Source: an uncultured bacterium
Lineage (GTDB): Bacteria > Oederibacteriota > JAAXVQ01 > JAUVAV01
Direction: 5' to 3'
Assembly: GCA_963710755.1 (NCBI GenBank)
Contig: CAVQBK010000013.1
Location: 192,001 to 256,000, forward strand
Length of the DNA: 64,000 nt
The position numbers were made by a program, and so were the translations under genes. Position 1 is the first letter of the stretch. Each line of letters opens with the position of its first letter. The notes under the pieces were generated by a model. It saw nothing but the letters and a program-made list of their open reading frames with translations, searched no databases and had not been told where the DNA came from. Of the stretch, positions 7,991-64,000 are shown piece after piece.

Positions 7991-10900
7991 TCAGGCGGAT
8001 GACCCTAGGGTTCTGCGGATGCGATAACGTTGTCTTGGTTGGTTCCGTTCTTGTCTCTGCCATGGTTTAAGCAGCCCGCTTTCCCATAAGGTTCGCACTG
8101 CCATCACCCCCAAACCCAAGCCTGCAATCACATGAGGCCATAGCCCCATGTCCAGGATATGCAGGCCCGCCACCAAGGCCGCCATGGTAACCGCGTAATG
8201 GCTCAAGGGCTGATTCCCGTTTAATTTATTATGTTTCTGTGCTTGATTAGAGTTGCCTTGGATGTCAAGCAAGCGACTCACGTGCAGGGTTAGGGTTTTA
8301 CCATCATCGCTGACTGAAAACGGAATACCGTAAACTTCCCCTGCTTTGGCCAACCCAACTTGTTTAAATGCCATTAGGGGTTGTTGGGCAGGTATGGCTT
8401 TCAGGATATTGCTTAACACATTGGCCGTTTTCTCCACAGCTTCGGTAAGCGATAAGCCAGACGCTTCCAGATTACGGATATCCGTTCGGATCACCATATT
8501 CTTTCTACTTTGACTGGCCGCCAATTGGGCAAGAAGCCGCATCCATTTGACATAGTGGTCAAAGCTTGGGTCTCTTTGTACCAAGGCATGGGAGAGGTGG
8601 ACAATATTATCTAATAAATCCACGTTGACTTTTAGTATTTTACGATAGCGTCCCTCTTCTTTGCCGAACAATTGGCTAATTTTCTCTTTTAACGTCTCTT
8701 TAGCAATTTGATTAAGGGGATGGGCGGCAATGGTGCTTCTGGCCATAGTTTCCAAGCGATATTGATCATAATGCTGAGCCATCATTTCCGCACTTCTGGG
8801 ATAAGCCATAATCTCGCCCAACTGTTCCACTTGGTGAGAAAGCTTGATATTATCTTTTTGGGCTATGACATCAAGAGCATTAAGGGCTTGCACCATCCAG
8901 AAAGGCAATCGTGATTTAAAAATCACCTTGGATAAAAGCAGTGATTCCCGCCGTTCCCCCAACCGGACCTGACCCAGGTAGGAATGGTAACGAATCAAAT
9001 TAACCGCCATTTTACGCACCCGGGTGGAGACTTTTTGTTTTTTCAAATACGTATCCGCCCATTGAGCACTTGCATCCTCATGGCCGTCCTGGCCCGGTGC
9101 AAAGGACAAGGCTACATCATGCAGGGCCACGGCCCAGAGAAAGGCCATTTGTTCTTCCAGAAAAGCGGACGTGAACCATGGCCGGAACAATCGCTGAACC
9201 GGTTTTTGCAATGCCGGGGGAAAGGCATTCCATTGTCGATCCTGAACGTTTTTGAAAAACTGCCAAGCCAGATGCATGCGTTTACCCCGGGATGGACTCA
9301 TTTGGCTAGCTATTTTTGTTACCTCACCATCGGCCAGGAGACGCTGTTGTGCCAATTGTTTAATTTCCAGCTCATCCAATTTACCCAGACGTAGCCAAAT
9401 CTGCCGCCCTTCAATGTATACCGGCAATCCAAATACACCACGAAAATTATTTTTTTTCAGTTCGCCAGCCACTTGCTCTGCCGTTGTGTTGGGATGCTTT
9501 TCTAAAATTTGAATAAAATATTTTAAAATGCTTTCGTCCGAGCGTAGGTGGCCGTAGTCTGAGTGAATAATAAGATCCTTTCGAACTTTACCCGTGGTGA
9601 CGGCCAGGCTTAACTGAGTAAGCAATTTCATCAGACGCAGATAGAGGTCCGGCCTGCTTTTGTGTATATCCAAAGCAAGGTGGCGCACGTGGTCGACCAT
9701 ATCCACTTGTCCGCCCAATTGGTGCAGTAACAGGTTGGCTTCCGGGCCAAATTCTGCTTGGATCTTCGGATCGTCTTTCGGATCAAAAGATCGGCTAGGA
9801 TCGAAATCCCTCCAATTTTGTGATCGAAAACTATCGAGACGATAACCTGCCAGGCCTTCGCCGGCAGCAGGAGCTTGATTGTTAAAGTGGATAATATTGT
9901 CCAGTTCCGCTTGGGACAATGCATTTAAATGCCCCAGGCGGGCAACAGCTTCCATGGTATGCATAATTTGCACCAGACTGAATTTCAAACGGCTGGTCAC
10001 CAAGGCGCGATGAAGGGAGGCATAGCGGATTTCCCCCAACCGGGCTTGGCCCATAAGAGACTGGATTTTTATGAGGCGCAGGGTAAGGTCGCGAATTTCG
10101 GGCAGCACCCGCAGGCGGTCGAGGATATCCTTGGCCACAGCACCACCGCGCTCTTCATGACCATAAGCTTCAGGATCAAGATAAAAACCCAAATCCTTAA
10201 GTCGCATAGCCCATCCCAGTGCCTGCTTTTCCACATATGTCGCATTTTGCCATGCTTGGTGCAATACCTGCAACTGAGTTTGATAGTCTTGGTCTCTGGA
10301 AAAATCCTGCCACTGGCTATCTACAAAACTGAAAAACGCACTTAACCCATGACGAATAAGACTGGCCCTTTGGGGAAGCCTTTGCCTCAGGGCTTTGAAT
10401 TCGGGCAGGCTATCCATATTAAGGTGACGATCCAGGGCATTGATTGGGGTTATCCGGAGATGTTCGTAACGTTTTTTCCAAACAGAAGGGCGAAAATAGA
10501 CAAAGGTATTCTTCTCCCACGCTTTCACATATCCTTGGTAAAAACTGTTCAACTCCTCCAGTCCGTGGCTACCATAGTTTTGGCTGATTAAAGCCTTCAA
10601 GGACTCACCCTTTAATAAAGCTTTATAAAAGGTTACCGCCTTTTGCCGCGCTTCCACTTCTCCAAAAGCAAGATATTTTTCATAATAGAGGTTGGCCAAG
10701 TCAGGGAGGAAATGAATATTACTCATTCCTCTTTGGGCACGAAACGCCACTTCAATACCGTTTTCCATAGTTTCTTGCCAACGGTCAAAATAAATTTTGG
10801 CTGGTCCCATTAACCCCAACCCAAGAAGGATCCGAGCCTGGGCCCCGATAATGTCCCAGGCTTGACTGAAATAGCCTTGGTTAATAAGGCCGGCCGTAAG

Positions 10901-13900
10901 TGGCTCATTGCCTTCCATAGCCTGATCACTTACTGCCCGGCGCAACCCATTGGGCGGCATGTAGCTATAGTTCTCTTTTTGATCCTCTTCCATACCGGCG
11001 GCTTGCATGATTCGTTGCCGCCGTTTTCGGCTGCGTTCGATCAATTCCGAAGTCCACTGCATATAATTTTCAGGATCTTTGAAGATTTCATCGCGCCATT
11101 GATCCATGATCATGGCTTGTTGATTGAGCGTAAAATCATCAAACACGGTGGCATAGAGTAAAAATTGCCATGCCGAAAGAGGACTGCCATCACCCAGTTT
11201 TTCCTGAAAAAGCACTTCTTGAATCTCTTTAAGATATTTGTGGAAAAGTTGATCTAAAAATTTCAATTTGTCCTTTTCCGTGATAGGCTGGGTTTGTTGG
11301 CCTAGATAATTGTCATAGATCTTTAACCAAGGATCCAACAACAGACGAATATGATCACTCCAGATATCAAAGCTGCCATTGTTGGCGGACGCAGCAATAG
11401 CTTTTTTGGAATAGATCAATGCCGTTTTAATAATATTTTGCGCCGAAAAATGTTGTTTTAACCAAAGCGCCAATTCCCGTATCTCTCTTTCAAAATAGGT
11501 TTCCATATTGATCAAATCGGCGGACAATTTGTTTTTGCTTTGACTTCTAAGCCGTTCCAGTTCCTGCAGACCTTTTTCAAAGGACCTTAAGGCATGGATG
11601 GCCACTTCGGTTTCATCAGCTTGATCTTGTTTTTGGCCAAGCTTTTGACGGCCTTGGAGATAATATTCAAAAACCGGCGTTTTCCAGGGCGCTATAAAAT
11701 TTGTAATAAGCGTCCTTGCCCATTTCCATTTTTTTAAATTAATGGAGGTCATTAACTGGGCAACTACATTTTGATCAAGATTTAACTTCTTAAACTGATG
11801 TGGGGCTTCATAATACAGTTTGATCGGTTTGACACCTTGCGATGTTATTAAAGCCTGGGAGATCGCGGTACGGCCATCACGTAAAACAGTCGGTCCCTGC
11901 AAATGTTGACCTCCTAAAAAGCAATCCTGATAAACGCCCAATACGCAAAGACTTTTTTGTGCCTCCTCCTTTTCCACCAAATCCTCTAGCCCGAAAATCT
12001 GTCCCGGTTGGATTTGGTATTGCCTCATCAACTTAATTTCCTGGTCCGTGTATTGGATATGATTACTTGGTGCCACCATGGCAGCCATGGTATAAGCCGG
12101 CTCTCCCTCGCCTAATTTTTGGGCAATCAGGGCGCTCAGTAAGGCTTGCGGCATACCGCCTTCACCTATGATCATATGAGGGGCCTCTTCACTCTTGCTA
12201 TTAAAATCAAGGGCCGGGGACCAGTCATCATTGAGCTTCAGTAACAGCTTACCCTTGGGCCCCGGTAAAAGCACTTCCCCCCGTCTATCGATTTCCTTCG
12301 AAATATCCCTTTCGTTTAGTACGATATCCATCTTGGAGGCAAAGGCCTTGATAAGCTCTTGATGATGCTCACGATAAAGCATGACTATTTTCGGGCGAAG
12401 GATCCCCTGCTTTTCAAAACCAGTCCAGATCTGATTAACCAAGCCGTTGACATCAACATGGCCATGGTCTTGATTTCCAGCCAATATCGCCTTCCAATCA
12501 ATAGTTCGAAATTTTGAAGAGGCAATGATTTTAAACATCCGTTTATCAGGGAGCGCCTTAAAAACCCTTTCCCGCGAGGATGGCGTAATTGCCAGGGCCA
12601 GCAACTGCCCCAAAGGGTTGCGGGCATGGGCCCCTTCCCCATAAAAAAACAGAACTTCGCGGGATGCTCTTCCGGTCAGTCCTTTGAAGAAAGTCCCGGG
12701 CACAAGACTGCCCGTGGGATTTTTCCGGGCATCAGAGCCAATGATTAAATAAGAAAAACGACGCATATTCATAAAAAACAAGCGCGCCCATCTTCTCGCC
12801 TTGGTTTCGAAACGAAAACGGTTGATATGCACCGGCCCGGGACCGGCATAACCCATCGAACGCTGGACTAACGTGCCTAAAAAGGACAGCTCCTCAGCGT
12901 AGTCCAAAAGCGACTCTCGTTCCGGCACACGGGGGAGAGAGACATCGTCCACGGAGCATTCTATAGGCCCATCAAGTAAATAGGTCTTCTGGGAAAGGTT
13001 GACCGCAATGGAATTTTTTACCTGTTTCAAAAATTCCTGTTTCACTTCATCCGGCTCTTTGCTTCCCCCGCCTGCAGGCGGTTGGTTTGCCTGATTGAGA
13101 TAAACATTTTCCTTCTTTATTTCCAGCTGCACCGCTGCTGGATTGTCCATGGCTCCGTAACCGGCAGAAATGCCGGCCAGAGCCATTTGGGGAGCTTCAA
13201 TGAGATGTCTGAGCCAGTGCCCGACAACGCGAGAAGCTTGTAGGGGCAGTTGATACAGTTGTTGGGCCAGGGCAAGACCTTGGCGCAGGACTTTTCGAAT
13301 AGTCCAATCCAAATCGCGGTGTTTGCTTACCCACTCAGCCATCTGCTCATAAGCATTGGTGTCACCAATGGCAACTGTCCACTTACCCAATTTCAGGGGA
13401 ACCGCTGTGGTAAAAGGGGCAGTTGGGGCCGAAGAATTGGTCAGAATGGCGGCTAAGCTTTCTGTTTTAATGGCCACCGACCGATGGTCAGGACTCCACT
13501 TAACATCAGGCTCATCTTCCCCGGGTCGAAGAGCATCGACTTTTGAACAGAAAACTTTGAGGGCAGCGATTTCCTTTTGTGTGGTGGCAACACCCGGTAG
13601 TTGATCTTGAAGAAATCCAGTGGCATTCCGTATGTCAACTTGGGGAGATTGAATGGGCAGGGCGAAACTGCTGCGATTGGGAGGCATTAATATTTTTTCC
13701 AAAGTGTTTTTTTCGCCCATCATATTTCTGAAATAGGGGTTGATCCGGTTACTCGCCCGATGGCAAGGCCGAATGCTTATAAAATTAATATTTTTTTCTT
13801 TTAAGGCTTGGGCAATGGCCCTTTCATGATAGCCGCCACAGACCAGGACAGCCAGGTCCTGGTTTGCTTCATCCATGCGCTTAAGCAGGTTGCGGACAAA

Positions 13901-15004
13901 AAACGCGCTACGCTGATCCACGGCTTGATAAAAACGCAGCGCATCCCGCACATAAGCGTCCAGGGTAATAATGGCCGGATCAAGCAGGGGTTTTTCATTA
14001 CCAGACCACTGGGTAATAAAATCAAGAAAGGTTTGAACTCGAAAAAATTGAGACTGTCGTTGTATTTGCGCCACCTCACTGGGTGTGGCCGAAATGTTCA
14101 TTATTTTTTCCAATATGTCCAGATGGTTAAGCAATTCATCCAACCGTCTTTGGTTGGGCTCGGTATACAACTTGGCCCGTAAAGCCTGTTCCAAGACCTG
14201 GAGAGCGGCATCCATTTCTTCCCGCTTTCCGGTCAAATCCGTAGAACGATAATTTTGATTTAGAAAACGCCGGAAGCGTTCTTGTATCTTGCCTGCCACC
14301 TGCGAAGCTTCGGCTTTTTCCAAGAGCATTCGTCCATAGTCCCGGGCGGGCAGGGTGCCTTGTCGATAGGCTTTGGCAACCTTATCCAGTTTGATTAAGT
14401 CCTGATTATTGAGTTTTGGTTTGATATCCTCCAGGCACTGTTTCAAATCCAAGAGATAACCTTGAGGCTCGCTGCTTAAAAGCCGCTTGATCTGATCAAG
14501 ACTGCTCAAGTAAACATCACGATTCTCTATCCCCACCAGCTTTAAGCCCTGGTTACCGGTAACAGCGGCATATTCGGCGCCTGTATAGCGTCCACGCTGG
14601 ACCAGATAATCGGCAATAGACAATCGCGCCCAGGGTAATTTAAAATTGGCCAAATTGGTGACTTCCAGGGGCAACCAGGCACCTTCCAGGCCCACCAAAG
14701 ATAAGTGATGCCTAAGCCCGAGAATTTTGAGAATCTTGGCAATGTTCCTTTGAACATCATAGTCGCAATGCATATCCTGCAGGTAAACAACTGTTTTTTT
14801 GGCTGTTGGCGATTGGAAATAAGTCTGGATTTCCCCTAAGTCACTGGGTATATGTACAACCTTATGGCGATAAACAATTTGGCTTTCATGAGGATTATAA
14901 GGCGTGGTAGTCCAACTGAAAGAAAGCAAAGGCGTGAGGTATATCATTATCGTGGCATACACCACGGTATGCATAATTCTCATTACAGTCATCCTTGAAA
15001 ACAA
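7991..15004 (-). CDS. Giant modular protein A: signal peptide, conserved N-terminal domain, GlpX-like domain, helical region, two HD-like modules, C-terminal TM
   Basis: 2337-aa ORF; hydrophobic N-terminus (true start may be ATG 14992 or 14983); N-domain paralogous to 57404-64000; domain evidence given in findings. Confidence 0.85.
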   Translation of the reverse strand: MFSRMTVMRIMHTVVYATIMIYLTPLLSFSWTTTPYNPHESQIVYRHKVVHIPSDLGEIQTYFQSPTAKKTVVYLQDMHCDYDVQRNIAKILKILGLRHHLSLVGLEGAWLPLEVTNLANFKLPWARLSIADYLVQRGRYTGAEYAAVTGNQGLKLVGIENRDVYLSSLDQIKRLLSSEPQGYLLDLKQCLEDIKPKLNNQDLIKLDKVAKAYRQGTLPARDYGRMLLEKAEASQVAGKIQERFRRFLNQNYRSTDLTGKREEMDAALQVLEQALRAKLYTEPNQRRLDELLNHLDILEKIMNISATPSEVAQIQRQSQFFRVQTFLDFITQWSGNEKPLLDPAIITLDAYVRDALRFYQAVDQRSAFFVRNLLKRMDEANQDLAVLVCGGYHERAIAQALKEKNINFISIRPCHRASNRINPYFRNMMGEKNTLEKILMPPNRSSFALPIQSPQVDIRNATGFLQDQLPGVATTQKEIAALKVFCSKVDALRPGEDEPDVKWSPDHRSVAIKTESLAAILTNSSAPTAPFTTAVPLKLGKWTVAIGDTNAYEQMAEWVSKHRDLDWTIRKVLRQGLALAQQLYQLPLQASRVVGHWLRHLIEAPQMALAGISAGYGAMDNPAAVQLEIKKENVYLNQANQPPAGGGSKEPDEVKQEFLKQVKNSIAVNLSQKTYLLDGPIECSVDDVSLPRVPERESLLDYAEELSFLGTLVQRSMGYAGPGPVHINRFRFETKARRWARLFFMNMRRFSYLIIGSDARKNPTGSLVPGTFFKGLTGRASREVLFFYGEGAHARNPLGQLLALAITPSSRERVFKALPDKRMFKIIASSKFRTIDWKAILAGNQDHGHVDVNGLVNQIWTGFEKQGILRPKIVMLYREHHQELIKAFASKMDIVLNERDISKEIDRRGEVLLPGPKGKLLLKLNDDWSPALDFNSKSEEAPHMIIGEGGMPQALLSALIAQKLGEGEPAYTMAAMVAPSNHIQYTDQEIKLMRQYQIQPGQIFGLEDLVEKEEAQKSLCVLGVYQDCFLGGQHLQGPTVLRDGRTAISQALITSQGVKPIKLYYEAPHQFKKLNLDQNVVAQLMTSINLKKWKWARTLITNFIAPWKTPVFEYYLQGRQKLGQKQDQADETEVAIHALRSFEKGLQELERLRSQSKNKLSADLINMETYFEREIRELALWLKQHFSAQNIIKTALIYSKKAIAASANNGSFDIWSDHIRLLLDPWLKIYDNYLGQQTQPITEKDKLKFLDQLFHKYLKEIQEVLFQEKLGDGSPLSAWQFLLYATVFDDFTLNQQAMIMDQWRDEIFKDPENYMQWTSELIERSRKRRQRIMQAAGMEEDQKENYSYMPPNGLRRAVSDQAMEGNEPLTAGLINQGYFSQAWDIIGAQARILLGLGLMGPAKIYFDRWQETMENGIEVAFRAQRGMSNIHFLPDLANLYYEKYLAFGEVEARQKAVTFYKALLKGESLKALISQNYGSHGLEELNSFYQGYVKAWEKNTFVYFRPSVWKKRYEHLRITPINALDRHLNMDSLPEFKALRQRLPQRASLIRHGLSAFFSFVDSQWQDFSRDQDYQTQLQVLHQAWQNATYVEKQALGWAMRLKDLGFYLDPEAYGHEERGGAVAKDILDRLRVLPEIRDLTLRLIKIQSLMGQARLGEIRYASLHRALVTSRLKFSLVQIMHTMEAVARLGHLNALSQAELDNIIHFNNQAPAAGEGLAGYRLDSFRSQNWRDFDPSRSFDPKDDPKIQAEFGPEANLLLHQLGGQVDMVDHVRHLALDIHKSRPDLYLRLMKLLTQLSLAVTTGKVRKDLIIHSDYGHLRSDESILKYFIQILEKHPNTTAEQVAGELKKNNFRGVFGLPVYIEGRQIWLRLGKLDELEIKQLAQQRLLADGEVTKIASQMSPSRGKRMHLAWQFFKNVQDRQWNAFPPALQKPVQRLFRPWFTSAFLEEQMAFLWAVALHDVALSFAPGQDGHEDASAQWADTYLKKQKVSTRVRKMAVNLIRYHSYLGQVRLGERRESLLLSKVIFKSRLPFWMVQALNALDVIAQKDNIKLSHQVEQLGEIMAYPRSAEMMAQHYDQYRLETMARSTIAAHPLNQIAKETLKEKISQLFGKEEGRYRKILKVNVDLLDNIVHLSHALVQRDPSFDHYVKWMRLLAQLAASQSRKNMVIRTDIRNLEASGLSLTEAVEKTANVLSNILKAIPAQQPLMAFKQVGLAKAGEVYGIPFSVSDDGKTLTLHVSRLLDIQGNSNQAQKHNKLNGNQPLSHYAVTMAALVAGLHILDMGLWPHVIAGLGLGVMAVRTLWESGLLKPWQRQERNQPRQRYRIRRTLGSSA

Positions 15005-52045: not shown

Positions 52046-52174
52046 CGACAAGCCCCCTATTCTTTTTAATCCCTCCTCAATCAAAATCAAATTTTACCAT
52101 AGATAATGATTAAAAATCCCAAGAATAGAGGTCATGTCTCAGCAAATGATAAAATGCCGGGTTGGGGAAAAAAC

Positions 52175-53377: not shown

Positions 53378-53389
53378 CGGTTCACTCCT

Positions 53390-54610: not shown

Positions 54611-55278
54611 GCCTCGATCCTCCCATCCCGGATTTTGACCAGCCGCCGGGCATGCTTCATGATCAATTGATCGTGGGTGGAAAAAACAAAGGTCACCTGG
54701 TCCTTGGTATTGAGTTCCTTCATCAGGTCTACAATACCCTCTCCGGTTTTGGAATCGAGGTTGGCGGTCGGTTCATCGGCCAGTACCATCTTGGGATTTT
54801 TCACCAGCGCCCTGGCAATGGACACACGTTGCTGCTGCCCTCCTGAGAGTTCCAAAGGAAGCCGGTTGCCCAGGCCCTTTAACCCCACTCGCTGGAGCAT
54901 GGTCATGACCTGCTGTTTAATTTCTTCTTGGTTATGTTTTTTCAGGAGCTTAAGGGGCATCTCCACATTTTCATACACGGTCAGTACGGGAATCAAATTG
55001 TAGGTCTGAAAAATAAACCCAAAATAGTCCTTTCGGAGCCGGGCCAATTCATCAGGATCCTTGCCCATCAATTCCGTGCCGTCTAGGGTGATTTGCCCGT
55101 TATCCGCTTTGTCAATGGTCCCAATGCAATTGAGCAGCGTGGTTTTACCCGACCCCGAAGGTCCGGCAATGGCGGTAAATTCTCCGGCCGCGATGGAAAC
55201 CGAAATGTCGGTGAGCGCCTGAAAAGGCACTTTCCCCGAATAGTAGGTTTTATTGAGATTTTTGACATCCAAAAGCAT
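54607..55278 (-). CDS. LolD/MacB-like ABC ATP-binding protein
   Basis: GPSGSGKTT, LSGGQQQRV, LADEPTANLD, STHD; AGGAGG RBS. Confidence 0.95.
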   Translation of the reverse strand: MLLDVKNLNKTYYSGKVPFQALTDISVSIAAGEFTAIAGPSGSGKTTLLNCIGTIDKADNGQITLDGTELMGKDPDELARLRKDYFGFIFQTYNLIPVLTVYENVEMPLKLLKKHNQEEIKQQVMTMLQRVGLKGLGNRLPLELSGGQQQRVSIARALVKNPKMVLADEPTANLDSKTGEGIVDLMKELNTKDQVTFVFSTHDQLIMKHARRLVKIRDGRIEA

Positions 55279-55336
55279 GTTCGCGTCCTCCTGTGTCAAG
55301 GTCACCGCCAGGCCTGCAAGCAAGGCAGCATAGGAA

Positions 55337-56419: not shown

Positions 56420-56500
56420 AAGCCATCCATCCTTGATTATCCTTAGCTTAGTCTTTATTTGCGTCTTGCCGTGAAGTAGCTTTTTTCCAGCGCTGCCAGT

Positions 56501-57242
56501 TTAGCGTTTTAAATATCCCCTGGTAAACACCTTGTCCGGTACGGGCTGATCGAACACCAACTCTTCAAAAGCAAAACTGGTCTTGGAATCTCTTTTACGT
56601 TTGTCCTGAATGGTGCCTTCCGTGGCCACCCAACGGCTGCCTATCTTCTTGACAGCGCGTTGCGTCATAACCTTAATCAACCGGCCGCCCCGGGCAAACA
56701 TCTCCACCTTAAGCGGCACAAACCGTTCCTGGTCCACATATAAAATCTGGCCGCGCATAAGTGACATCAGGAACCTTGGCATCCAGTTGCAGCACATAAC
56801 AGGCGCGCCCGTCAATCTCCTGATCCGGTTGCAGCGTACTCTTGTATTTTTCCTCAAGTTTATCATTCTCCAGCATGTCTTCGTAGGACAGGTCACTGCC
56901 CATCATGCCCTGGCGCAGCATGTGGCCTGAAATTTTCATCACATCATCAGCATCAGGAAAATAGATCCACAGTTCGTCCTTGATTTTCAAGTATTTCACG
57001 CCCTTATCCTCGGGGTTGGTAAATTCCATGAAGGACCGGTCGCCTTCTTTTTTTCCATAGCCAAAAAAAGTTTTGACCAACGTAATCCGGCCTTTGGCAA
57101 TGGTCATGGTAGCTTTAAAAGACTCGGTGGTATACACCTGGTTCTGGTCCACTTTTTCAATAATAGCTTTTGCCGTGGGCGCAGCCCAGGTAAACGCCGG
57201 CAGTCCCACCAGGGCCAGTGCCAATAGTTTCCAAACACGCAT
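56501..57242 (-). pseudogene. LolA-like outer membrane lipoprotein-sorting protein, single-base frameshift (real or sequencing error)
   Basis: ELWIYFP, MMGSDLSYEDM; total length 742 = 3n+1; removing one base near 56748-56752 joins ..VTYAR to QILYVDQERF.. Confidence 0.85.
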
Positions 57243-57280
57243 AAGGATGTCCTCCTCCTTGGAGTTGCAAACAAAGGTTT

Positions 57281-57403: not shown

Positions 57404-60400
57404 TTAAGCCGCCTGTCCCAGGCCACGAATAAAAACAGGACGCCTAGGCCATTGACGATGTTCTTTTCCGGCAGGAAACCTTATGAGGAAGTAACGGTAG
57501 GCGGCATAAGCAGTTAAGCGTTCAAGCCATGTCAAGACAGACCGGTCTGGACGTTGTTCCTGGTATGCGTTCAATTGCCGAGCCAAATGATAAGGTAAAT
57601 AAAGTGTGACTATTTGTCCCTGCCTTACCAGCCATTGCCCCTGGCGCAGACCCAACCCATAGGTCCAGGGCCCGACCGAGGCGGGTAAGGCCATGAGGCG
57701 CACCTGCTTAACTTTCAACAGGTTGCGCCACAACAACTCATCCTGATTAGCTAAAGCGGCAAGCAAGGTCAGTTGATCGCCGTCCGATAAATGGACGGTT
57801 GCTTTTAACGGTGGCGTTGTGACAGAAAGACGGCGCCTGGCAAGGATAGCCTTGATCAGCAGCCCAGCCAGGGACCAAGCTGAAGCCTGCTTTTGGGGTT
57901 TCACCAAAGAGGCTGGCATGTCCATGTTGGGTCCAAAGCGCAATGCCCAAGGTGAGAAAGAGGTTAGCTGTTCAGCTTTAGCTCTGGCCTGGTTTAGGCG
58001 GCGTGATTCCCCTTGGTAATTGACCAGCCCATGAATGATATAAGCTAATGGTATCACCATCAGCAAAGGCAATAGATGCGCCACGGTGACCATCGCCGTA
58101 ATCCGGGCTGCGACCTTGAGGTTGGCCTGGGGAGTGTGGCGGTCCAGATGGGCGCTGGCATACAATCCCAGCCAACCGGTTGCACTAAGCGCCTTGGCCC
58201 AGGAACCGCCGATGGTGGTCAGACTGTCCCACAGCAGCATAAGATCGCCGGAGCTTATCCATGTGGTCAACGCCAAACCAGCCAGAATGGCCAGCCACAC
58301 ATAGGTGGTCTCAATCCAGTGAGCACGTTGTTCAAAATCAGTCCAATGGTAATGGTCATTGGACAAACGAAGCAGATGAGCTCTGACCCAATGATGAACC
58401 TTAAACCACAGATAAGAAGCTCCCCGGGGCCGCGTCGGCGCCAGACTGGTTTGCCTAATGGCTTGACTGTAAGGATTGTCCTGGGCTTCAGGCTGGTCCG
58501 GATCCATGAGCAGGGCTTCCGCCAAACGTTGTAAATCCCATCCAAGGATCGCCTTATATTTTTGAAACAGCGGTTCCAGTATTTCGGTCTGTACTTCCCT
58601 GATAACAGCTTTATCTGCATCTCCATTAGTCAGGGCTTGAGCATAAGCCTTGCGATAGGATTCCAGCGTCCCGCTGTTCCTGGACCAGGTCAGCAGCACC
58701 CCTGCGGCGTAGGCCACAGCCGCTTGGCGCAGGTCGTGATTTTTCTGCCACAAAAGCCAGGCCAGCTTGACTCCTGTTCGCCGGGCTTTGGCCTGGGAAG
58801 CAAATCGCGGTTGTTGAACCCTGAGCTTATCCCAAGCCTGACTGAGTATATTTTCGAAAACCGTTAGTTCATGCTTCACCAATGCCTCATCGGAGAAAGA
58901 TTGGCCTGTAGGCAACCCATGGGGCGGAATGGTTTCTTCCAGCAGATCAATGATCCGATTTTGATCACCTCGCAGCCTGGTGGCCGAAGCGTAAGTAAAA
59001 AACAACCCTGCCAGGCTTTGAGGAAAAAGCACGTGAGGAATGTTTATGTGTGGGGCCGTTTGCCTGGAAAAATCAAACAGCACTTCCGGCACACGAAGAC
59101 GGCTATACAAGTCCGCATCCATTTTGCCGATATTACTGAGGATTAAGGTCCGGTTGTCCTCAGCATAAAAAGCGGAGAAGCGGGCAACCGATCGGCCATC
59201 TTCTGTACGCACGTCATACCAAACATCAGCGTCTTGAATTGGTCTTCGTTCCAGCACCAGTTTAACCGATTGGTCAAAGCGGCTCTTAATCTCAATATGC
59301 TGATCCCCGAAACGACCTGACACCCAGGAAGCGTCTTCATAAAATTGGGTAAGATAGGCTTTCATCGCACGACGCAGCCCATTTAAGCCCGATAGGTCCA
59401 AGGACGATCGGGCAGCATCTGATCGACGACCTTGTTTCCAATTCAGCCAGGGCCCAATAGCCAACAACCCGGCCCACAAAGTCAACGTTAGAGAACTTGT
59501 GCCCGCCAAACTGAAAATCATGCCTGCCATTCCAATATTTACCAAAGCCAACCTGGTGGCCCTTTTGGCATTGGCATAGGCCTGAGCTTTTTGTTCCGGG
59601 GTTAGGGATGATGGCATCACCCAATGGAAAAAAGCAAAGGCTGTCCAATAAAGCAGCACGCCCAGGCTCATGGGCAACAAACTGCCGTTCGTGAGATACT
59701 GAGCCGCGCCAAAAAGACCGATGCCCCATAGGGGCCAGCTTTCCACCCTCCAGGCGGTGGGAAAATAATCCGCGCCCTGGCGGCCTTGCCACCATTGACC
59801 GAACCTGGTCTGCATCAGCCTCTGGTTCCAAAGAATTAACATGGGAATAGCACCGGCTTCCTGCCACACCAAATCAGGCAGGCCCACCACGCCTGGCCCT
59901 TCTTTGTCTCCGGCAGGGGGCTGATAGACAAAAGCTTTTCTTTTATAGGCTTGACTATACTGATACAGCCTTGCCTGATGGGCTTCATCAGGTAAGGCTG
60001 TAGCCGTGGTCTTAAGCCACATCACTTGGTATGGCTTAAGCGTGATAATCAGTTGGTTGTTTTTAAGATCGATTCTTTTTCTACTTAAGAGGTCGTGAAA
60101 TGTCTGGCCCATGCGGGACACTTGATTCAAAGGCACCCTGACCTGCTGAGGCTGGTCGCTGACATTGAGCAAGTCTACAATAAAATCCATGCCATCCGGT
60201 GATTCGTAAAACCTGCACAGCACGGCATCATTATGGGCATCGAGCACCACTACCGGCGGGCCATTGGGATCAAAGGCATTTTCCCGGGCACGCACCGCAA
60301 AAAGCTTCTCCTTGGCCTGGTTGATCAACCCCATTCTGTCACGCCTTTTATCCAACTGACGGTGAAACGACCTCAGCTGCGCGGTGAGCCCAGGACTGAT

Positions 60401-63400
60401 AGGGGCTGCCAGATGTTCCAGTATAGGTAATAGCTTAACCAGCATCTCAATGACCCGTCCTCGCAAGGTGCGGGGATAAGCAATGGATTTCAATACCTCT
60501 AAATAATTAAACCGTTCCCGGTTGATGTCCCTTTCTTCCCCTGCCTCGAGCTGACCCAGGTAATTGGCCCCGCCTAAACGGCTCACATAGTAATCCGCCG
60601 GCAAGCCGCGAAAGCCCATATTCATTGCATAGAGCACCAACTGGCGGGCAATCTGCATAGTCAAGCCATCCTGGTATTGCCCAGGATGGTTTGGTTCTTT
60701 GGGATTAAGCGCATCTTGGGTGGTGGAACAAACTTCATAAGTATAAGTTCCGCCGCCCGGTGCCTGTGCGGCTTTGGGTTTGGCACCATAGCGCCCTGCC
60801 AGGGCTTGACTGAACTGTTCTCTAACCTTCTGTGCCAGAAGGCCGTAAGTGGCTTTAAAAGGAATGCCGTCATGACAGCCCGCCAGATTGACGATCTGGC
60901 GGTTGACAAAGCCTTTGGCCTGCTTTTGGAACTCGGTATAGACCTTGACTGATTTAGCCCAGATGGCCTCCAACCCCAAAGTATAAGCGGCAAAATTATA
61001 AACTTTACTGACCTCCGGCCGTTGCTCTCTTTCCAGATAGGTCTCTATGGCTTCCATTTTTTCATTGACTTCACCCACGGTTTCCACATAGGGTGCCGCA
61101 TAATTGAGTACCATCTCCAGCGCTTGTAGTAATTGATGGGTTTCAGGCAAATGCATGGCCTGCGTTTTCATACGCTTCACAATATAGCCTACAGCATCAA
61201 AACGTATCATGGTAGCGCCTTGGGTAATGTAAAACAACAGCACCTTGGACAGTTCCAGAAAGACTTGGGGATTGTCATAATTCCAATCAGTCTGACGTGT
61301 ATCAATGGTACCGTCGCTGCGGTCCGGCCGGGTAAAGGTGGTATACGCATAGGCTTGGCCCAGAATTCTCACCTGCTGGGCTGGCACTTTTATTTGCAAT
61401 CGTGCAGTTTGCAAGCGCTCTTGTTCAGAAGGTACATCAGGCACCAGCTGCCATTGACCGTCTTTAAGCTGAAGGGCTTGATAGGTAAGACCGTAGGGCT
61501 TACCATAGATGGCCTGTAAAATAATTTGGCTCGAACCATCAGGCAAAGGCACATGGGCTTCAGCCACGAAATAAGGCGTAAAAGGTCGACCAAGGCGGGG
61601 CCGGATGAAGGAATCCGTGTCTTCCACCGGTGGCAGGTCGTCATATATTTTGACGAAACTTTTATAAGGCGCATAGGTCTGATAACGCGGGTCGTCGTGA
61701 TTAAGAAAATGCTCAATCAAGGCTTTTTGCACCCAGGGACCGTCGCTGGAACCGTGCAATGCGGAAAAATCAAACATCAGATCAGCATAACGGCTGAGTT
61801 GTTTAATATCTTTCCATGTACCCAGATCAGGACTGACTTTTTTCAAATCAATGGGTGAATACCCATTATCCACATCGGACGGGTAAAAGGGCGCAAGGTG
61901 GATCATTTTAAGTTTAAGGCGTTTGGCCATTTTTAACAGTACTTGCAAAGGCAATAAATTGCCATGAGGGTCCACAAAAGAATTGCCGTAAACCATGGTC
62001 AAAAGATCAGCCTGGGAAAAGCGGCGCAGGTGCTGCAGTTTGGCCCATTGCGCCGGCGTCAATTGGCTGCGAAAGGTCTTGACCGCGGCGATCAGCTCAT
62101 CCACCAAGGTGCCGGTCTTATCCCCATAAAAGGAACTCAGTTGACTGATCATGGCTGATCGAAATTGATATTGCGCCTGTTCTGCCTGAAGCATAGCAGG
62201 AGAAGATTCCTTAACGGCTTGAGCCCCTGAAGTGTAGGCGTCCTGCTCTCTTAACATGGTTGTGGCAGCCTGGGTCCGCGTTGCACCCTTGGTGCTGGGT
62301 TGGCCCTCAGCCGTGACCGGGACCAAGGCGGCTTGGCTTCTCCAAGGCCGGGTTAAACTCAGGATCATCACCGCCATGGCCATGGCGAGCATGGCCTGTG
62401 GAGACGTCAGCGTCAACAACGAAGCCCAAGCCAAATGAGCACCGGCATAGGCTGCAACCAAGGTTGAGATCCAAAACCAGGGCCCGCGATGGCCAAAAAG
62501 ATGAACTGGTTGCAACGCAGGATTTAAGGCAGCGGCCAGGTTCTTTAAAAAATCACGGTCAAGCTTTTGGAAAGCCACCACATCTACAGTGGGCAGTCTG
62601 GAAAAAACGGCCTTACCATGGGTCATGACCAAGGCCTTGGCTTTTTGGGAAAAGGTGCCGCCCACAGCCGTGAGCAGCAATAAAGGCTGTTTACGATTTT
62701 TTAAGGCCACACGATGCAGGCGGACACCCGGGGGCAAAGGCACGGGTGAAAACTCTTCTGTCCAGGTTTCTCCTTCCTGCTGCAGCCAGGTTTGCAGTAC
62801 TTGCTTTTGACTGTTATTCAACCGCTCTCCCTGGTGACGGGCCAGGGCGCCCAAAAGCAAGGCCATGACACGGTTACTCCATGGCGACTGCAACCATGAG
62901 GGCAGCGCAAAAAAGCGTTCATCCTTTTTTAATAACCTTTCCAGGGGTAAGGCTTTGCCCTGAAGCAAACTGAAATAAGGATTAAGACGGCCATGATTTT
63001 CCACCCGGGGTTTAACCGCCAAATAGCCGATATGTTGGGCTTTGAGGTACGCAAGAATCTTCGGTGTATGAAAACCGCCGGTGATCATTACTGCCAGTGA
63101 TTGGTCTTGCCGGTCCATGGCCTGCACCATGTTTCGGGCCAGGGCCAGGCTGCGCGCTTCTGCCAATTGATAAAACAGCTGAGCCTGGTCGAGATCCTGG
63201 TCCAGCTGATACAGGTCAGGCAGCATATACTCCACGGAGGCCAGCTGGTTTACAGGGCTCAACTTGGGATGTTTCTGGCGCAGATAGCGAATGAAACGCT
63301 CCATCCTGAACTCATTGCGATGCTTCAGAAAAAGAGCAAGTTCTTCAGGGGTGGCGGAAATGTTGAGCAGCTTTTCCATAAGATCAACCCTGGCCAGATA

Positions 63401-64000
63401 GTGTTGCAATTCCCTGGCCTGCGCGCTGGAATCAAGCCGCTTCTCAATGAGAGCGATCAGGCGGTCCATGGCCTGGATCAGAACATCAGGATCGGCGCTT
63501 CTTCTCTTCTCGACAATGGCCAGATCCAATGTATGTAACCCCAACCGTTTGGCCCAATGGCGCACCTTTTCAGCAAAAGACAGCCACTCCAGATCGCCCT
63601 TATGAAATGATTGGCATAGGTTGTCAAAAGCCATTAACCGCTGGTTATAAACTGAAGGTTTAAAATCACTCAACGCCTGACGCAAATCCATCAGTGTGCC
63701 CTGAGTCCCGGCATTAAGAAAGGCATGAATCTTTTTCAAACTCGCTGCATAAAGAAACTGGTTTTCAAGGCCAACGATTGACAAGGCCTGATGGTTATTA
63801 AGGGCCGCGTATTCAGCCCCCGTTAATTTGCCTTGGTCTAAAAAATAAGAAGTTACGTGGTCAAGATATACTTTAAAAGGAAAGCGCCGGAGATGGTCAA
63901 CCTTGATTGGTCCGGCAGCGCCTTCCTGACCGATAAGGGTCAGATGATGTTTTTGATTAAGCTCTTTAATAATGGCGGCAATATGGCGCTGCACGGCTTG
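57404..64000 (-). CDS. Giant modular protein B (5' end beyond the window): conserved N-domain, TM pair, GH13_18 sugar phosphorylase, membrane bundles
   Basis: Frame open to the window edge (QAVQRHIAAII aligns with YDVQRNIAKIL of protein A); RFDAVGY, GEVNE and CHDG catalytic motifs. Confidence 0.9.
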   Translation of the reverse strand, partial: QAVQRHIAAIIKELNQKHHLTLIGQEGAAGPIKVDHLRRFPFKVYLDHVTSYFLDQGKLTGAEYAALNNHQALSIVGLENQFLYAASLKKIHAFLNAGTQGTLMDLRQALSDFKPSVYNQRLMAFDNLCQSFHKGDLEWLSFAEKVRHWAKRLGLHTLDLAIVEKRRSADPDVLIQAMDRLIALIEKRLDSSAQARELQHYLARVDLMEKLLNISATPEELALFLKHRNEFRMERFIRYLRQKHPKLSPVNQLASVEYMLPDLYQLDQDLDQAQLFYQLAEARSLALARNMVQAMDRQDQSLAVMITGGFHTPKILAYLKAQHIGYLAVKPRVENHGRLNPYFSLLQGKALPLERLLKKDERFFALPSWLQSPWSNRVMALLLGALARHQGERLNNSQKQVLQTWLQQEGETWTEEFSPVPLPPGVRLHRVALKNRKQPLLLLTAVGGTFSQKAKALVMTHGKAVFSRLPTVDVVAFQKLDRDFLKNLAAALNPALQPVHLFGHRGPWFWISTLVAAYAGAHLAWASLLTLTSPQAMLAMAMAVMILSLTRPWRSQAALVPVTAEGQPSTKGATRTQAATTMLREQDAYTSGAQAVKESSPAMLQAEQAQYQFRSAMISQLSSFYGDKTGTLVDELIAAVKTFRSQLTPAQWAKLQHLRRFSQADLLTMVYGNSFVDPHGNLLPLQVLLKMAKRLKLKMIHLAPFYPSDVDNGYSPIDLKKVSPDLGTWKDIKQLSRYADLMFDFSALHGSSDGPWVQKALIEHFLNHDDPRYQTYAPYKSFVKIYDDLPPVEDTDSFIRPRLGRPFTPYFVAEAHVPLPDGSSQIILQAIYGKPYGLTYQALQLKDGQWQLVPDVPSEQERLQTARLQIKVPAQQVRILGQAYAYTTFTRPDRSDGTIDTRQTDWNYDNPQVFLELSKVLLFYITQGATMIRFDAVGYIVKRMKTQAMHLPETHQLLQALEMVLNYAAPYVETVGEVNEKMEAIETYLEREQRPEVSKVYNFAAYTLGLEAIWAKSVKVYTEFQKQAKGFVNRQIVNLAGCHDGIPFKATYGLLAQKVREQFSQALAGRYGAKPKAAQAPGGGTYTYEVCSTTQDALNPKEPNHPGQYQDGLTMQIARQLVLYAMNMGFRGLPADYYVSRLGGANYLGQLEAGEERDINRERFNYLEVLKSIAYPRTLRGRVIEMLVKLLPILEHLAAPISPGLTAQLRSFHRQLDKRRDRMGLINQAKEKLFAVRARENAFDPNGPPVVVLDAHNDAVLCRFYESPDGMDFIVDLLNVSDQPQQVRVPLNQVSRMGQTFHDLLSRKRIDLKNNQLIITLKPYQVMWLKTTATALPDEAHQARLYQYSQAYKRKAFVYQPPAGDKEGPGVVGLPDLVWQEAGAIPMLILWNQRLMQTRFGQWWQGRQGADYFPTAWRVESWPLWGIGLFGAAQYLTNGSLLPMSLGVLLYWTAFAFFHWVMPSSLTPEQKAQAYANAKRATRLALVNIGMAGMIFSLAGTSSLTLTLWAGLLAIGPWLNWKQGRRSDAARSSLDLSGLNGLRRAMKAYLTQFYEDASWVSGRFGDQHIEIKSRFDQSVKLVLERRPIQDADVWYDVRTEDGRSVARFSAFYAEDNRTLILSNIGKMDADLYSRLRVPEVLFDFSRQTAPHINIPHVLFPQSLAGLFFTYASATRLRGDQNRIIDLLEETIPPHGLPTGQSFSDEALVKHELTVFENILSQAWDKLRVQQPRFASQAKARRTGVKLAWLLWQKNHDLRQAAVAYAAGVLLTWSRNSGTLESYRKAYAQALTNGDADKAVIREVQTEILEPLFQKYKAILGWDLQRLAEALLMDPDQPEAQDNPYSQAIRQTSLAPTRPRGASYLWFKVHHWVRAHLLRLSNDHYHWTDFEQRAHWIETTYVWLAILAGLALTTWISSGDLMLLWDSLTTIGGSWAKALSATGWLGLYASAHLDRHTPQANLKVAARITAMVTVAHLLPLLMVIPLAYIIHGLVNYQGESRRLNQARAKAEQLTSFSPWALRFGPNMDMPASLVKPQKQASAWSLAGLLIKAILARRRLSVTTPPLKATVHLSDGDQLTLLAALANQDELLWRNLLKVKQVRLMALPASVGPWTYGLGLRQGQWLVRQGQIVTLYLPYHLARQLNAYQEQRPDRSVLTWLERLTAYAAYRYFLIRFPAGKEHRQWPRRPVFIRGLGQAA

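Follow-up and report, generated by a model that had tools for sequence, protein, structure and literature searches.

A family of giant bacterial proteins with a conserved leader, head and tail and differing bodies

The window examined here, a 64,000-nucleotide stretch of DNA, contains the genes of two giant proteins, A and B, of a family in which a conserved leader, head and tail enclose bodies that differ from one member to the next. Some 31 paralogous open reading frames (ORFs), A and B among them, share an N-terminal head of ~430 aa; together these giant ORFs total 80,562 aa and take up 7.0% of the DNA of the 3.44-Mb genome. The sequence comparisons strongly support the modular picture drawn in a first-pass annotation of the window, in which a constant N-terminal domain and a shared tail flank variable enzyme cargo. 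The same annotation compared the family with polymorphic effector systems that could act on a host or prey cell, a reading that finds no support here; its alternative suggestion, tethering to the membrane, agrees better with the data.

The two genes in the window

Both genes, and all features located below, lie on the minus strand. The ORF list, translations and family search place protein A (2337 aa plus stop) at 7991..15004, in the order leader, head, unannotated body, C-terminal helix pair and tail, and the part of protein B within the window (2198 of 2281 aa) at 57404..64000. The ORF of B runs off the edge of the window, with its start 249 bases outside; the leader and the first catalytic-type histidine likewise lie just past the end. 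The ORFs are those of the first-pass annotation, and the 42.4 kb between them agrees with its ~42 kb. When A is compared with B by BLASTP, a single match is significant (33% identity, 389 columns, E 5e-56), the runner-up reaching only E 0.099. The match joins A 84-454 to B 3-373 (window numbering), contains all ten of the motif pairs reported earlier and stops directly past FALP, as first described.

The head domain

The head occupies residues 32-470 of A (13595..14911), as defined by BLASTP against B, an alignment of the 31 paralogues (A1) and 9,725 relatives; the part of the B head in the window is 62882..64000 (BLASTP against A and alignment A1). It is always N-terminal in the 31 ORFs (E 1e-41 to 1e-84), and with the HMMER filters off no other ORF scores between 1e-20 and 0.2. 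The search adds 29 paralogues to A and B, and paralogous heads within the genome are 28-39% identical. All 15 genomes of the order have the head, there in ORFs of up to 13,678 aa, and none of 84 other genomes of the phylum does. Relatives worldwide form 9,725 protein clusters, and copies per genome range from 6 to more than 30. Those relatives that have a name are assigned to candidate division FCPU426, Candidatus Firestonebacteria and Candidatus Goldiibacteriota and not to Omnitrophota; in the ESM Atlas, most of the nearest clusters do bear an Omnitrophota label. The head has no match among the Pfam and NCBIfam models, and no characterised family of fixed architecture was found to include it.

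Four residues, H48, E76, R334 and H362, are the same in every one of the 31 heads of alignment A1, and D46 is conserved in at least 90%. In A the invariant residues are H79 (14768-14770), E107 (14684-14686), R365 (13910-13912) and H393 (13826-13828). The first His and the Glu are 28 residues apart, as are the Arg and the second His; in TraB proteins aligned for comparison both distances are 26 (H19-E45 and R220-H246). The available text of PMC6254334 names His-85/Glu-113 in Bcr135 and Glu-3900, His-3902, Glu-3930, Arg-4001 and His-4030 in RRSP. The order (D/E)-x-H, a Glu 28 residues later, and an Arg and second His 28 apart in a beta-strand-GxxH setting is common to the head and the TIKI, TraB-PrgY-GumN, ChaN, Ere, Bcr135 and RRSP proteins. 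Among the Atlas neighbours of the model of one homologue (P0084), six of the seven rows with family names are DUF5694/TraB, ChaN, TraB_PrgY_gumN or erythromycin esterase, all rows being under the bar with query-normalised TM-scores of 0.29-0.38. The residue pattern, with its spacing, and these structural neighbours suggest membership of the TIKI/TraB/ChaN/erythromycin-esterase hydrolase superfamily.

Profile tests with Pfam and hhalign did not confirm this membership. Among the Pfam models of the clan only one is touched, by one of the 31 heads (PF04187, E 0.067), and the hhalign probabilities for the head profile are 0.25% and 1.4%, neither score being significant; the best local pairing sets the R...GGFH stretch of the head against the R...GxxH stretch of TraB (E 0.037, as against 0.3 for the reversed control). 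The head also differs from the superfamily in its first motif, Q-D-L-H(-C) rather than G-x-x-H, in a ~150-residue helical insert between its halves (alignment columns ~190-340), and in being fused to bodies of 600 to more than 13,000 aa. TIKI1/2 consist of a signal peptide, the domain and a single helix, and PrgY of an extracellular domain followed by membrane helices; the arrangement of leader, head and helix matches these layouts.

Bodies and their exchange

Pfam domains were found in 15 of the 31 members, with content that differs among them: GH13, GH77, glucoamylase-like, PPDK-like, HD, NUDIX, GGDEF, kinase and glycosyltransferase domains. Domains needing ATP, GTP, NTPs, NDP-sugars or acetyl-CoA occur in 14 of the 15 annotated members. 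These domains are PPDK_N (four members), cytidylate kinase, GGDEF, NTP_transferase, GT1, GNAT, AAA, NUDIX and HD. No toxin family was among the Pfam hits of the 15, and neither SecA_DEAD nor C39 matched any of the 31 proteins.

The GlpX-like and HD modules first assigned to A are seen as weak matches only. The GlpX-like stretch (residues 939-1015, 11960..12190) matches PF03320 at 12.7 bits in the whole protein and at 17.7 bits (E 0.0017) in a 400-aa piece, under the Pfam cut-off of 27. BLASTP of the post-head regions shows that residues 1598-1892 (9329..10213) resemble part of the paralogue G000:C2:20340-32552 (25% identity, E 1.4e-16), and that a second copy of this module, residues 1955-2231 (8312..9142), matches the same region (28% identity, E 2.9e-21); the repeat went undetected when A was compared with itself by BLAST. 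A weak match to a CCA-enzyme HD region (NF008137, residues 1576-1653, E 3.2e-4) overlaps the first copy, and the second has a weak HD match (PF01966, 14.2 bits, E 0.056). No PDB relatives of the A cargo were found by sequence.

The 'GH13 phosphorylase' reported in B stands as a GH13 enzyme of the alpha-amylase family. The stretch with its catalytic region and C-terminal beta-domain (60017..62020) matches PF00128 (E 5e-15, 56 bits, the cut-off being 22) and PF16657 (E 1.5e-4). NCBIfam models TIGR03852 (1.7e-23) and TIGR02456 (3.3e-23) both score well under their cut-offs, and as the best of them, sucrose phosphorylase, reaches 82.9 bits against 334, the phosphorylase label is unsupported. Further on, a module common to two paralogues (57866..58513; BLASTP and hydropathy) matches G000:C2:20340 with 33% identity (E 4.8e-22) and G000:C5:106017 with 28% (E 1.3e-18), and contains further hydrophobic helices.

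The sequences show that heads and bodies have been recombined. Among representatives there are 21 pairs of heads at least 70% identical, of which 16 have at least 800 aa past the head match. In seven of the 16, similarity covers less than 25% of the remainder, and five of these seven have none; heads 70-89% identical can thus carry unrelated bodies. The cargoes of A and B can be recognised only within the same genus, at 60% and 78% identity in G023 and, for B, also as a 31% match to its GH13 inside a 9859-aa ORF of G032; in the other genomes of the order they were not found at E 1e-10.

Leader, membrane segments and tail

The leader motif, P-x(1-3)-small-W/F-A/S/T-hydrophobic, is present in 29 of the 31 members, 25 of which also pass a hydrophobicity test; motif and hydrophobicity together are found in 124 of 150 foreign representatives. 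A is one of the two members without the motif. Its signal-like segment (residues 1-31, 14912..15004; hydropathy peak 1.42 at residue 5) does exist, as first noted, but no other member has a weaker one, and it lacks ...TWAF(E/D) by regular-expression search.

Topology was assessed by a crude Kyte-Doolittle hydropathy scan. A strong hydrophobic segment lies within 320 aa past the head in 23 of 31 members, mostly 145-250 aa past it; the other eight, including A, have none in this range. In B the segment, one helix or a hairpin, lies 138-176 aa past the head (full-length residues ~594-632, 62354..62470). Bodies contain many hydrophobic bundles, with up to ~40 segments in one protein; the transmembrane-type bundles reported for B were recovered, one of them at full-length residues ~1523-1586 (59492..59683). 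With a threshold of 1.6, 13 of 17 nucleotide-dependent domains are separated from the head by an odd number of segments, but with 1.4 only 10 of 17 lie opposite it. Lysines and arginines around the first post-head helix (32 before, 38 after) favour neither orientation, and in paralogue C13:520358 no helix is predicted between the head and an AAA ATPase region. A has two adjoining hydrophobic helices (residues ~2266-2303, 8096..8209; peaks at 2266 and 2285) followed by a strongly basic tail, which suggests, by the positive-inside rule, a cytoplasmic C-terminus.

The similar Arg-rich tails seen earlier in A and B are borne out by the translated C-termini. That of A (7994..8035) ends ...RRTLGSSA, in full ...RQRYRIRRTLGSSA, and that of B (57407..57448) ends ...FIRGLGQAA, in full ...RRPVFIRGLGQAA. 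Defined as at least three K/R within residues -20 to -4 and an end small-small-A/V, the tail occurs in 21 of the 31 members, whereas 33 of the remaining 7,063 ORFs of at least 100 aa have it. In three tail-less members an overlapping downstream ORF bears it, and one 8131-aa ORF has the tail with no head. Among distant relatives it is found in 70 of 110 foreign representatives of at least 1,500 aa, and 82 of the 110 end in AA or SA. The basic tail, ...R-R-R-phi-R-R-S-F/L-x-S/G-A-A-COOH, resembles the ssrA tag in its phi-small-x-A-A-COOH end, the organism's own tmRNA tag (GEQEFALAA) ending F-A-L-A-A and the family, by its position-by-position consensus, F/L-x-S/G/Q-A-A. The tail differs from the tag in being genome-encoded, in its preceding Arg-rich stretch and in having S, G or Q in place of Leu at -3. 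The genome has one ClpX gene, and it also encodes an S41 tail-specific protease, by which an -AA end in the periplasm could be recognised.

Relationship to known giant proteins

Among the closest described systems are the 'Archaeovorins' and the multi-enzyme metabolic class with signal peptide and transmembrane helices of Omnitrophota. In the available text on these they too are long ORFs, often with a signal peptide and many membrane helices, and share glycosyltransferases, glycoside hydrolases, NUDIX, PPDK_N, GGDEF and AAA_5 with the present family. Apart from C39 or S8 peptidases, no domains could be identified in their N-terminal regions according to that text, whereas the present family has neither SecA_DEAD nor C39, spans 1-9.5 kaa and has its named relatives in FCPU426, Firestonebacteria and Goldiibacteriota. 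The available portions of both texts do not contain the words TraB or Tiki, and FCPU426, Firestonebacteria and Goldbacteria are absent from those searched for them. With polymorphic toxins and MARTX the family shares constant trafficking-type ends, exchangeable internal or C-terminal modules and new combinations by recombination; it differs in having no toxin domains, immunity genes or nearby dedicated secretion genes, and in that the variable part is the middle, with both ends constant.

Possible modes of action

That the family could be an assembly artefact, made of misassembled chimaeras or decaying pseudogenes, is very improbable. Two members on 9-kb contigs (C11 and C12) are near-duplicates of C4:146561 and three look split into overlapping ORFs, but the ORFs run uninterrupted for 1,070-9,465 aa on contigs of up to 1.47 Mb, and the architecture recurs throughout the order and in the worldwide clusters. 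A short contig from the X1 run, which may share the sample, crosses the head/cargo junction of A (13306-13728, 423 bases) with no differences; at this junction there is no sign of the misassembly that the first-pass annotation had allowed for. Delivery into or onto another cell, host or prey, with leader and head exporting the protein and the tail serving as a translocon signal, as in polymorphic effectors and MARTX, is unlikely. Constant ends with swapped bodies follow the logic of conflict systems, the restriction of recognisable A and B cargo to one genus implies fast turnover, and the cytoplasm of another cell could provide what nucleotide-dependent enzymes need. Basic C-terminal tails are, moreover, known type IV secretion signals. 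TIKI-superfamily domains occur in the giant modular toxins RRSP and PMT (available text of PMC6254334), and Omnitrophota giants with similar domains have been interpreted as instruments of predation (available text of 10.1101/2023.11.21.568195). Against this, VirB4, VirD4 and TssC have no match in the genome, the lone FHIPEP gene is that expected for a flagellum, and the three secretin genes do not adjoin family genes. No recurrent neighbour gene was found across the 31 loci, and hence no immunity-like partner; toxin families are lacking among the Pfam hits, the many hydrophobic bundles argue against release, and the low identities among the heads of this genome point to an ancient split more than to cassettes exchanged recently.

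We consider it no likelier that the chains are threaded out as surface or periplasmic enzyme arrays, held by helix bundles and acting on alpha-glucan-type polymers. The widespread leader motif would suit such arrays, as would GH13, GH77 and glucoamylase-like modules acting on external glucans and the eight members, A among them, with no strong post-head helix; in the available text of a 2026 Omnitrophota preprint, DeepTMHMM put the metabolic content of the longest giant of the signal peptide and transmembrane class outside the cell. The cofactors needed by nearly all annotated members speak against it, since the periplasm is not known to supply ATP, GTP, NTPs, NDP-sugars or acetyl-CoA, and so does the probably cytoplasmic C-terminus of A. 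Slightly more doubtful is a self-processing polyprotein, in which a TIKI-like head would act in cis as a peptidase cutting or end-trimming the giant, the tail marking the last fragment. Catalytic-type residues intact in every copy are as expected for function in cis, the TIKI family includes endopeptidases (available text of PMC6254334), and C39/S8 peptidase domains near Omnitrophota signal peptides have been proposed as cleavers (available text of 10.1101/2023.11.21.568195). An exported head, however, could not reach cytoplasmic linkers, and it may just as well have an esterase or a binding role; ChaN, for example, binds haem.

The reading we favour, at a little under an even chance, is that these are not injected effectors but mosaic enzymes anchored in the membrane, with the head exported and the body cytoplasmic. 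Export of the head would depend on a Sec-type leader, made up of a basic n-region, a hydrophobic core and ...P-x-x-T/S-W-A|F-E/D. The head itself is putatively a highly divergent, catalytically intact TIKI/TraB/ChaN/erythromycin-esterase-like hydrolase; almost every copy retains D-x-H, E, R and H. Some 150-250 aa further on, a stop-transfer helix would leave the variable body in the cytoplasm of the producing cell, where its nucleotide- and NDP-sugar-dependent enzymes would work while additional helix bundles tie them to the membrane; candidate cytoplasmic cargo includes the alpha-glucan enzymes, PPDK-like dikinases, HD, NUDIX, GGDEF, kinase and glycosyltransferase domains. The tail may be read by a shared factor, most likely an AAA+ unfoldase or protease such as ClpX, for the turnover or handling of long chains. 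A constant head and tail with differing enzymes between them seems undescribed for this lineage, in which new members would arise as recombination just behind the head and anchor unit joins it to other bodies.

A family of giant proteins with a constant head

The two giant proteins of the window, A (positions 7991-15004, minus strand, 2337 aa in the ORF list) and B (57404-64000, minus strand, running off the window; 2281 aa as the complete ORF in the genome), share an N-terminal domain, as the first-pass annotation had proposed. BLASTP aligns residues 84-454 of A with residues 3-373 of B at 33% identity (E 5e-56), the single significant match between them, as the remaining ones all have E >0.09. 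Every motif pair listed in the first-pass annotation is recovered in this alignment, the similarity ends directly behind FALP, and the Arg-rich C-terminal tail is present in both proteins.

A and B belong to a much larger family. A phmmer search with the head of A (the head being the conserved ~430-aa N-terminal domain) of all ORFs of at least 100 aa in the source genome, G000 (3.44 Mb, 13 contigs C1-C13, 98% complete; the window is C13:192001-256000), finds 31 ORFs, all of them with the head at the N-terminus. A hidden Markov model built from the 31 heads returns, with filters off, the same 31 ORFs and nothing scoring between E 1e-20 and 0.2. Counted from the first start codon, the members are 619-9,465 aa long and total 80,562 aa, or 7.0% of the genome; all ORFs of at least 1,500 aa (n = 53) make up 12.7%. 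As two members on contigs of ~9 kb are near duplicates of a third, the number of distinct family genes is 29-31. These contigs, C11 (8.8 kb) and C12 (9.3 kb), carry near-copies of C4:146561-150529, to which they are 100% and 88% identical, respectively, just behind the head; the identity of C12 is 62% in the part that follows. Both contigs are probably an unresolved repeat or strain variants. Same-strand tandem pairs of members are frequent (C13:157634/167193, C13:510161/520358, C1:318112/321814 and C4:49359/56887).

Of the 99 species genomes of the phylum that were searched, 15 belong to the window's order (families f1 and f2); all of these contain the head and none of the other 84 does. The longest head-bearing ORF in the order has 13,678 aa. 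When run against 1.84 billion cluster representatives, the profile of the head matches 9,725 proteins at E <=1e-3 and 6,198 at E <=1e-30; in the best 150 of the 9,725 the match begins within residues 1-118, and the proteins are 388-7,768 aa long. A contig search with the head confirmed 276 of 304 candidate stretches; the 80 retained all come from metagenome-assembled genomes labelled candidate division FCPU426, Candidatus Firestonebacteria, Candidatus Goldiibacteriota or 'uncultured bacterium'. Two partial homologues carry the source names 'MFS transporter, partial' and 'hypothetical protein'.

Variable bodies and recombination

The bodies behind the head, or cargo, were annotated with Pfam at E 1e-3. 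Matches were obtained in 15 of the 31 members, each with a different content, and the other 16, including A, have none. PPDK_N occurs in four members and is accompanied by PEP-utilizers in three. Glycan-type bodies comprise GH13 (in B), GH77, a weak glucoamylase-like match, TreT_GT1 with GT1, and NTP_transferase; others contain HD (two members), NUDIX, GNAT, GGDEF, cytidylate kinase, LMW phosphatase, a transglutaminase core with an AAA-type P-loop, or a weak M50 match. The GH13 module ascribed to B is sound (PF00128, E 5e-15; 56.1 bits, cut-off 22), but its naming as a phosphorylase is not borne out: the sucrose phosphorylase equivalog scores 82.9 bits against a cut-off of 334.4. The GlpX-like and HD modules ascribed to A are sub-threshold hints; the GlpX match (PF03320) has 12.7 and 17.7 bits, under the cut-off of 27, and covers 67 of 307 model positions. 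Two pieces of A have no relatives by sequence in the PDB below E 0.19, and self-BLAST finds no repeat inside A at E 1e-3. Short contigs from one run cover parts of A at low depth.

Compared with one another by BLASTP, the post-head regions have only scattered modules in common. Two stretches of A recur in an HD and NUDIX paralogue on C2, and one module of B recurs in paralogues on C2 and C5. The cargo of both proteins is present in the same-genus genome G023 (60% identity for A, 78% for B), and a 9,859-aa ORF of G032, another genome of the order, contains a counterpart of the GH13 of B with 31% identity; apart from these two genomes, the cargo of neither protein was found elsewhere in the order at E 1e-10.

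Recombination can be followed among the foreign representatives, the homologues of the head in the protein-cluster library outside this genome. The best 150 contain 21 pairs with heads at least 70% identical, and 16 of these continue for at least 800 aa past the end of the collinear head match (residue 508-914). Less than 25% of the rest is similar in seven of the 16 pairs, and in five of the 16 none of it is. The representatives P0045 (3,029 aa) and P0055 (7,287 aa), for example, are 82% identical over residues 1-688 and have nothing in common beyond, and in other pairs, modules are rearranged or inserted. Judged from such alignments, head/body recombination does happen; the library merges proteins at least 50% alike, so these pair counts prove its occurrence and not its frequency. 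The earlier proposal of a modular family with constant ends and variable cargo is upheld by the 31 paralogues, their unlike Pfam content and the pairing of like heads with dissimilar bodies.

Leader and tail

A leader, or signal-like N-terminal segment, is nearly universal. The motif P-x(1-3)-small-W/F-A/S/T-hydrophobic, commonly ...PYVTWAF(E/D), occurs in 29 of the 31 members, preceded by one to six Lys/Arg and a hydrophobic stretch. The motif and a hydrophobicity test together are passed by 25 of the 31, and likewise by 124 of 150 foreign representatives. The small residues at -3/-1 would fit a signal peptidase I site. The signal-like segment noted in A survives as a weak leader, although A is one of the two members lacking the motif. 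In many of the foreign leaders in the series P0039-P0062, the hydrophobic core is preceded by ...W-H/Q-K-P-x-R-R-V-W-A-K..., which bears a loose likeness to the twin-arginine motif and is inconsistent among the 31 copies of G000. A strong hydrophobic segment follows the head at a distance of up to 320 aa in 23 of the 31 members, mostly at 145-250 aa. Iterated profiles define a post-head extension of ~100-145 aa in 16 of the 31, including B but not A, and, in the last 300 aa, C-terminal domains common only within small subgroups (4 members).

The tail, a basic C-terminal motif, is present in 21 of the 31 members as against 33 of 7,063 other ORFs. Among 110 foreign representatives of at least 1,500 aa, the motif occurs in 70, and the last two residues are AA or SA in 82. 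The consensus (n = 89) is K/R-rich from -12 to -10, hydrophobic at -9, R at -8/-7, S/T/R at -6, F/L at -5, small at -4, S/G/Q at -3 (S 29%, G 22%, Q 17%; Leu is not consensus), A at -2 (76%) and A at -1 (92%). Three tail-less members, at C3:409593-423663 (plus strand), C6:5580-16438 (minus) and C13:366379-383045 (minus), are each overlapped by a downstream ORF in another frame that carries the tail (overlaps of 92, 16 and 247 bases); a frameshift, a sequencing error or a true splitting of the gene could each account for this. One ORF outside the window, of 8131 aa (C4:21437-45829, plus strand), combines a family-like leader and the tail ...RLKGAGSAA with a long low-complexity region rich in Q/E/K/A/T in place of the head. 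The tail is therefore not strictly bound to the head.

The tail resembles a degradation tag. The tmRNA gene of the genome (C2:14814-15168, minus strand) encodes the tag peptide GEQEFALAA, which has in common with the tail consensus the F at -5, the small residue at -4 and the A-A end. In E. coli, C-terminal L-A-A-COOH is read by ClpX. The tail differs from this ssrA degron at -3, where it has S/G/Q instead of Leu. G000, like most bacteria, has one gene for ClpX and one for an S41 protease.

Nature of the head

Column identity in an alignment of the 31 heads averages 43%, and the paralogues are 28-36% identical to A. Its invariant positions include H48, Q54, E76, G77, R334, G359, G360, H362 and Y393 (alignment numbering). 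The four residues H48, E76, R334 and H362, which correspond to H79, E107, R365 and H393 of A, are present in 31 of 31 heads, and D46 and C49 are conserved in at least 90%. The head thus displays D-x-H with a Glu 28 residues on, and an Arg and a second His, within ...GGF/YH, likewise spaced by 28. The TIKI superfamily shows a His-Glu pair, His-85/Glu-113 in Bcr135 and His-3902/Glu-3930 in RRSP, for which the accessible text of the source also names Glu-3900, Arg-4001 and His-4030 (PMC6254334). The 2His/2Glu-type pattern of that superfamily (a His-Glu pair, an acidic residue two before the His, an Arg and a second His) is present in the head in full, an agreement of residue pattern that does not by itself prove homology. 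TraB/GumN proteins of the same phylum have G-x-x-H19...E45 and R220...G-x-x-H246, both with a spacing of 26.

Sequence comparison finds no family for the head. It has no match in Pfam or NCBIfam, nor in PDB sequences, where the best hit is not below E 0.19. None of the 31 heads significantly matches the clan models PF01963, PF04187, PF05139 and PF18950; PF04187 (ChaN) touches one of the 31 at E 0.067, and the other three give no match. Over the whole genome, PF01963 has no match, and the best match of PF04187 (E 0.122) falls within a member of the family. Seven near-length homologues of the head profile contain no clan Pfam domain. Profile comparison by hhalign gives a probability of 0.25% for the 31-head alignment against eight TraB proteins, and 1.4% (E 0.037; reversed control, E 0.3) for 179 heads against 128 TraB proteins. 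The best local alignment places the R...GGFH stretch of the head opposite R...GxxH of TraB. No ChaN or Ere protein was found in the 99 genomes of the phylum.

Structural neighbours give a further lead. The Atlas model of the foreign homologue P0084 (pTM 0.68) has unnamed clusters of the same family as its three nearest neighbours (rows 1-3), followed in rows 4-9 by DUF5694/TraB, ChaN, TraB_PrgY_gumN (three rows) and erythromycin esterase, so that clan families fill six of the seven rows carrying a family name. The TM-scores of rows 4-9 are 0.29-0.38 by query and 0.34-0.57 by row, all of them 'under the bar'. The residue pattern, these structural neighbours and the hhalign alignment are three agreeing leads to the TIKI superfamily; the low hhalign probabilities and the contact of PF04187 with only one of the 31 heads weigh against it. 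The head probably has a TIKI-like fold and is a candidate member.

Topology, neighbours and mode of action

The proposed topology, the least secure part of the picture, has the head outside and the body inside: the leader would export the head and the body would remain cytoplasmic. In its favour are the leader in nearly all members, the post-head helix in 23 of 31 and the cytoplasmic cofactors needed by most of the annotated modules. With the hydropathy threshold set to 1.6, the head is separated by an odd number of segments from 13 of 17 nucleotide-dependent domains; at 1.4, however, the count is 10 of 17. Also against it, the flanking Lys/Arg charges are uninformative (32 versus 38), the post-head helix is missing in eight members including A, one paralogue has an AAA region that no helix separates from the head, and the hydrophobic segment of B may be a hairpin. 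In A, strong helices are limited to a pair immediately ahead of the very basic tail, which suggests that its C-terminus and body are cytoplasmic and puts its weak leader in doubt.

The first-pass annotation had likened the two proteins to polymorphic effector systems, with cargo that could act on a host or prey cell or be tethered at the membrane. The window shows a diderm-type organism. Downstream of A (2511-7135) lie AcrB and an outer-membrane efflux protein, and directly downstream of B (52175-57242, minus strand) lie a LolA-like gene, an unannotated 360-aa ORF, an ABC ATPase and two MacB/FtsX-type permeases; neither set recurs at other family loci. A clustering of the ORFs that lie up to 6 kb from the 31 loci identified no shared partner or immunity gene; the largest cluster (20 ORFs, 16 loci) includes tandem family members, the only ones in it to be identified. 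No conserved DNA motif was seen over 250 bases ahead of the starts, where only AT-rich 8-mers recur. The 98%-complete genome has no match to VirB4, VirD4 or TssC (PF03135, PF02534, PF05943), the search for a delivery apparatus having covered these T4SS and T6SS components; three secretin genes and one FHIPEP gene are present. The Pfam matches, obtained in 15 of 31 members, are to metabolic or regulatory enzymes and include no toxin domain. With no toxin domain among these matches, no shared partner identified and no VirB4, VirD4 or TssC, the idea of effector delivery lacks support.

Two further proteins of the window deserve mention. A thermolysin-like M4 peptidase of 1249 aa (48341-52090, minus strand) contains FG-GAP repeats and, at its C-terminus, a sorting domain of the T9SS type (PF18962). 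In G000, several other ORFs of at least 1,500 aa end in a similar ...K-I/V-x-I/V-x-K and are a second class, of large exported proteins. A 547-aa low-complexity ORF (23691-25334, minus strand), whose sole match is a Cornifin/SPRR proline-rich repeat (E 1e-11, below the gathering score), adjoins a STAS/anti-sigma-type kinase gene.

In the model that best fits these features, the family extends through the whole lineage and its members would be mosaic enzymes anchored in the membrane, each with a putative TIKI-like head that is exported and a tail that resembles a degron. A more far-reaching reading, which we consider improbable, is that head and tail are address labels of an unknown export or hand-over route, and that recombination diversifies the cytoplasm-type enzymes (glucan enzymes, dikinases, nucleotide hydrolases and a cyclic-di-GMP synthase) presented or delivered to other cells. 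If true, this would be a polymorphic 'enzyme-cargo' system, unlike the toxin-based ones.

Relation to other giant proteins and significance

Giant proteins of Omnitrophota, as far as the accessible texts describe them, mix GT, GH, NUDIX, PPDK_N, GGDEF and AAA_5 domains with many membrane helices, as here. The 2023 preprint, in its accessible part, gives PPDK_N, NUDIX, GGDEF and AAA_5 as frequent domains of the giant genes, and N-terminal regions without identifiable domains except C39 or S8 peptidases (10.1101/2023.11.21.568195). A 2026 preprint, in the part accessible, describes 'multi-enzyme metabolic' giants as having signal peptide and membrane segments (SP+TM) by DeepTMHMM. SecA_DEAD and/or C39 peptidase domains and a length of at least 10 kaa serve as marks of the Omnitrophota class (Archaeovorins and multi-enzyme SP+TM proteins). 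The 31 proteins have no Pfam match to either domain; A and B are of 2.3 kaa, the longest member here has 9,465 aa and relatives reach 13,678 aa. TraB, Tiki, FCPU426 and Firestonebacteria are absent from the main texts of both preprints, and the main texts of the open literature yielded no description of the head or chassis. The family is set apart from the known giant mosaic proteins of Omnitrophota by its definable and testable head/tail chassis.

Giant mosaic proteins are conspicuous and unexplained in several uncultured lineages. The present family offers a testable handle on them, a delimited head of ~430 aa with four invariant catalytic-type residues and a short tail, the module boundary being marked by natural head/body swaps. 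The head defines 9,725 clusters (50% identity) that are unnamed in current domain libraries. The roles of head and tail would reveal how proteins thousands of residues long are made, placed and disposed of, and whether their 'housekeeping-type' modules act inside the producer or elsewhere.
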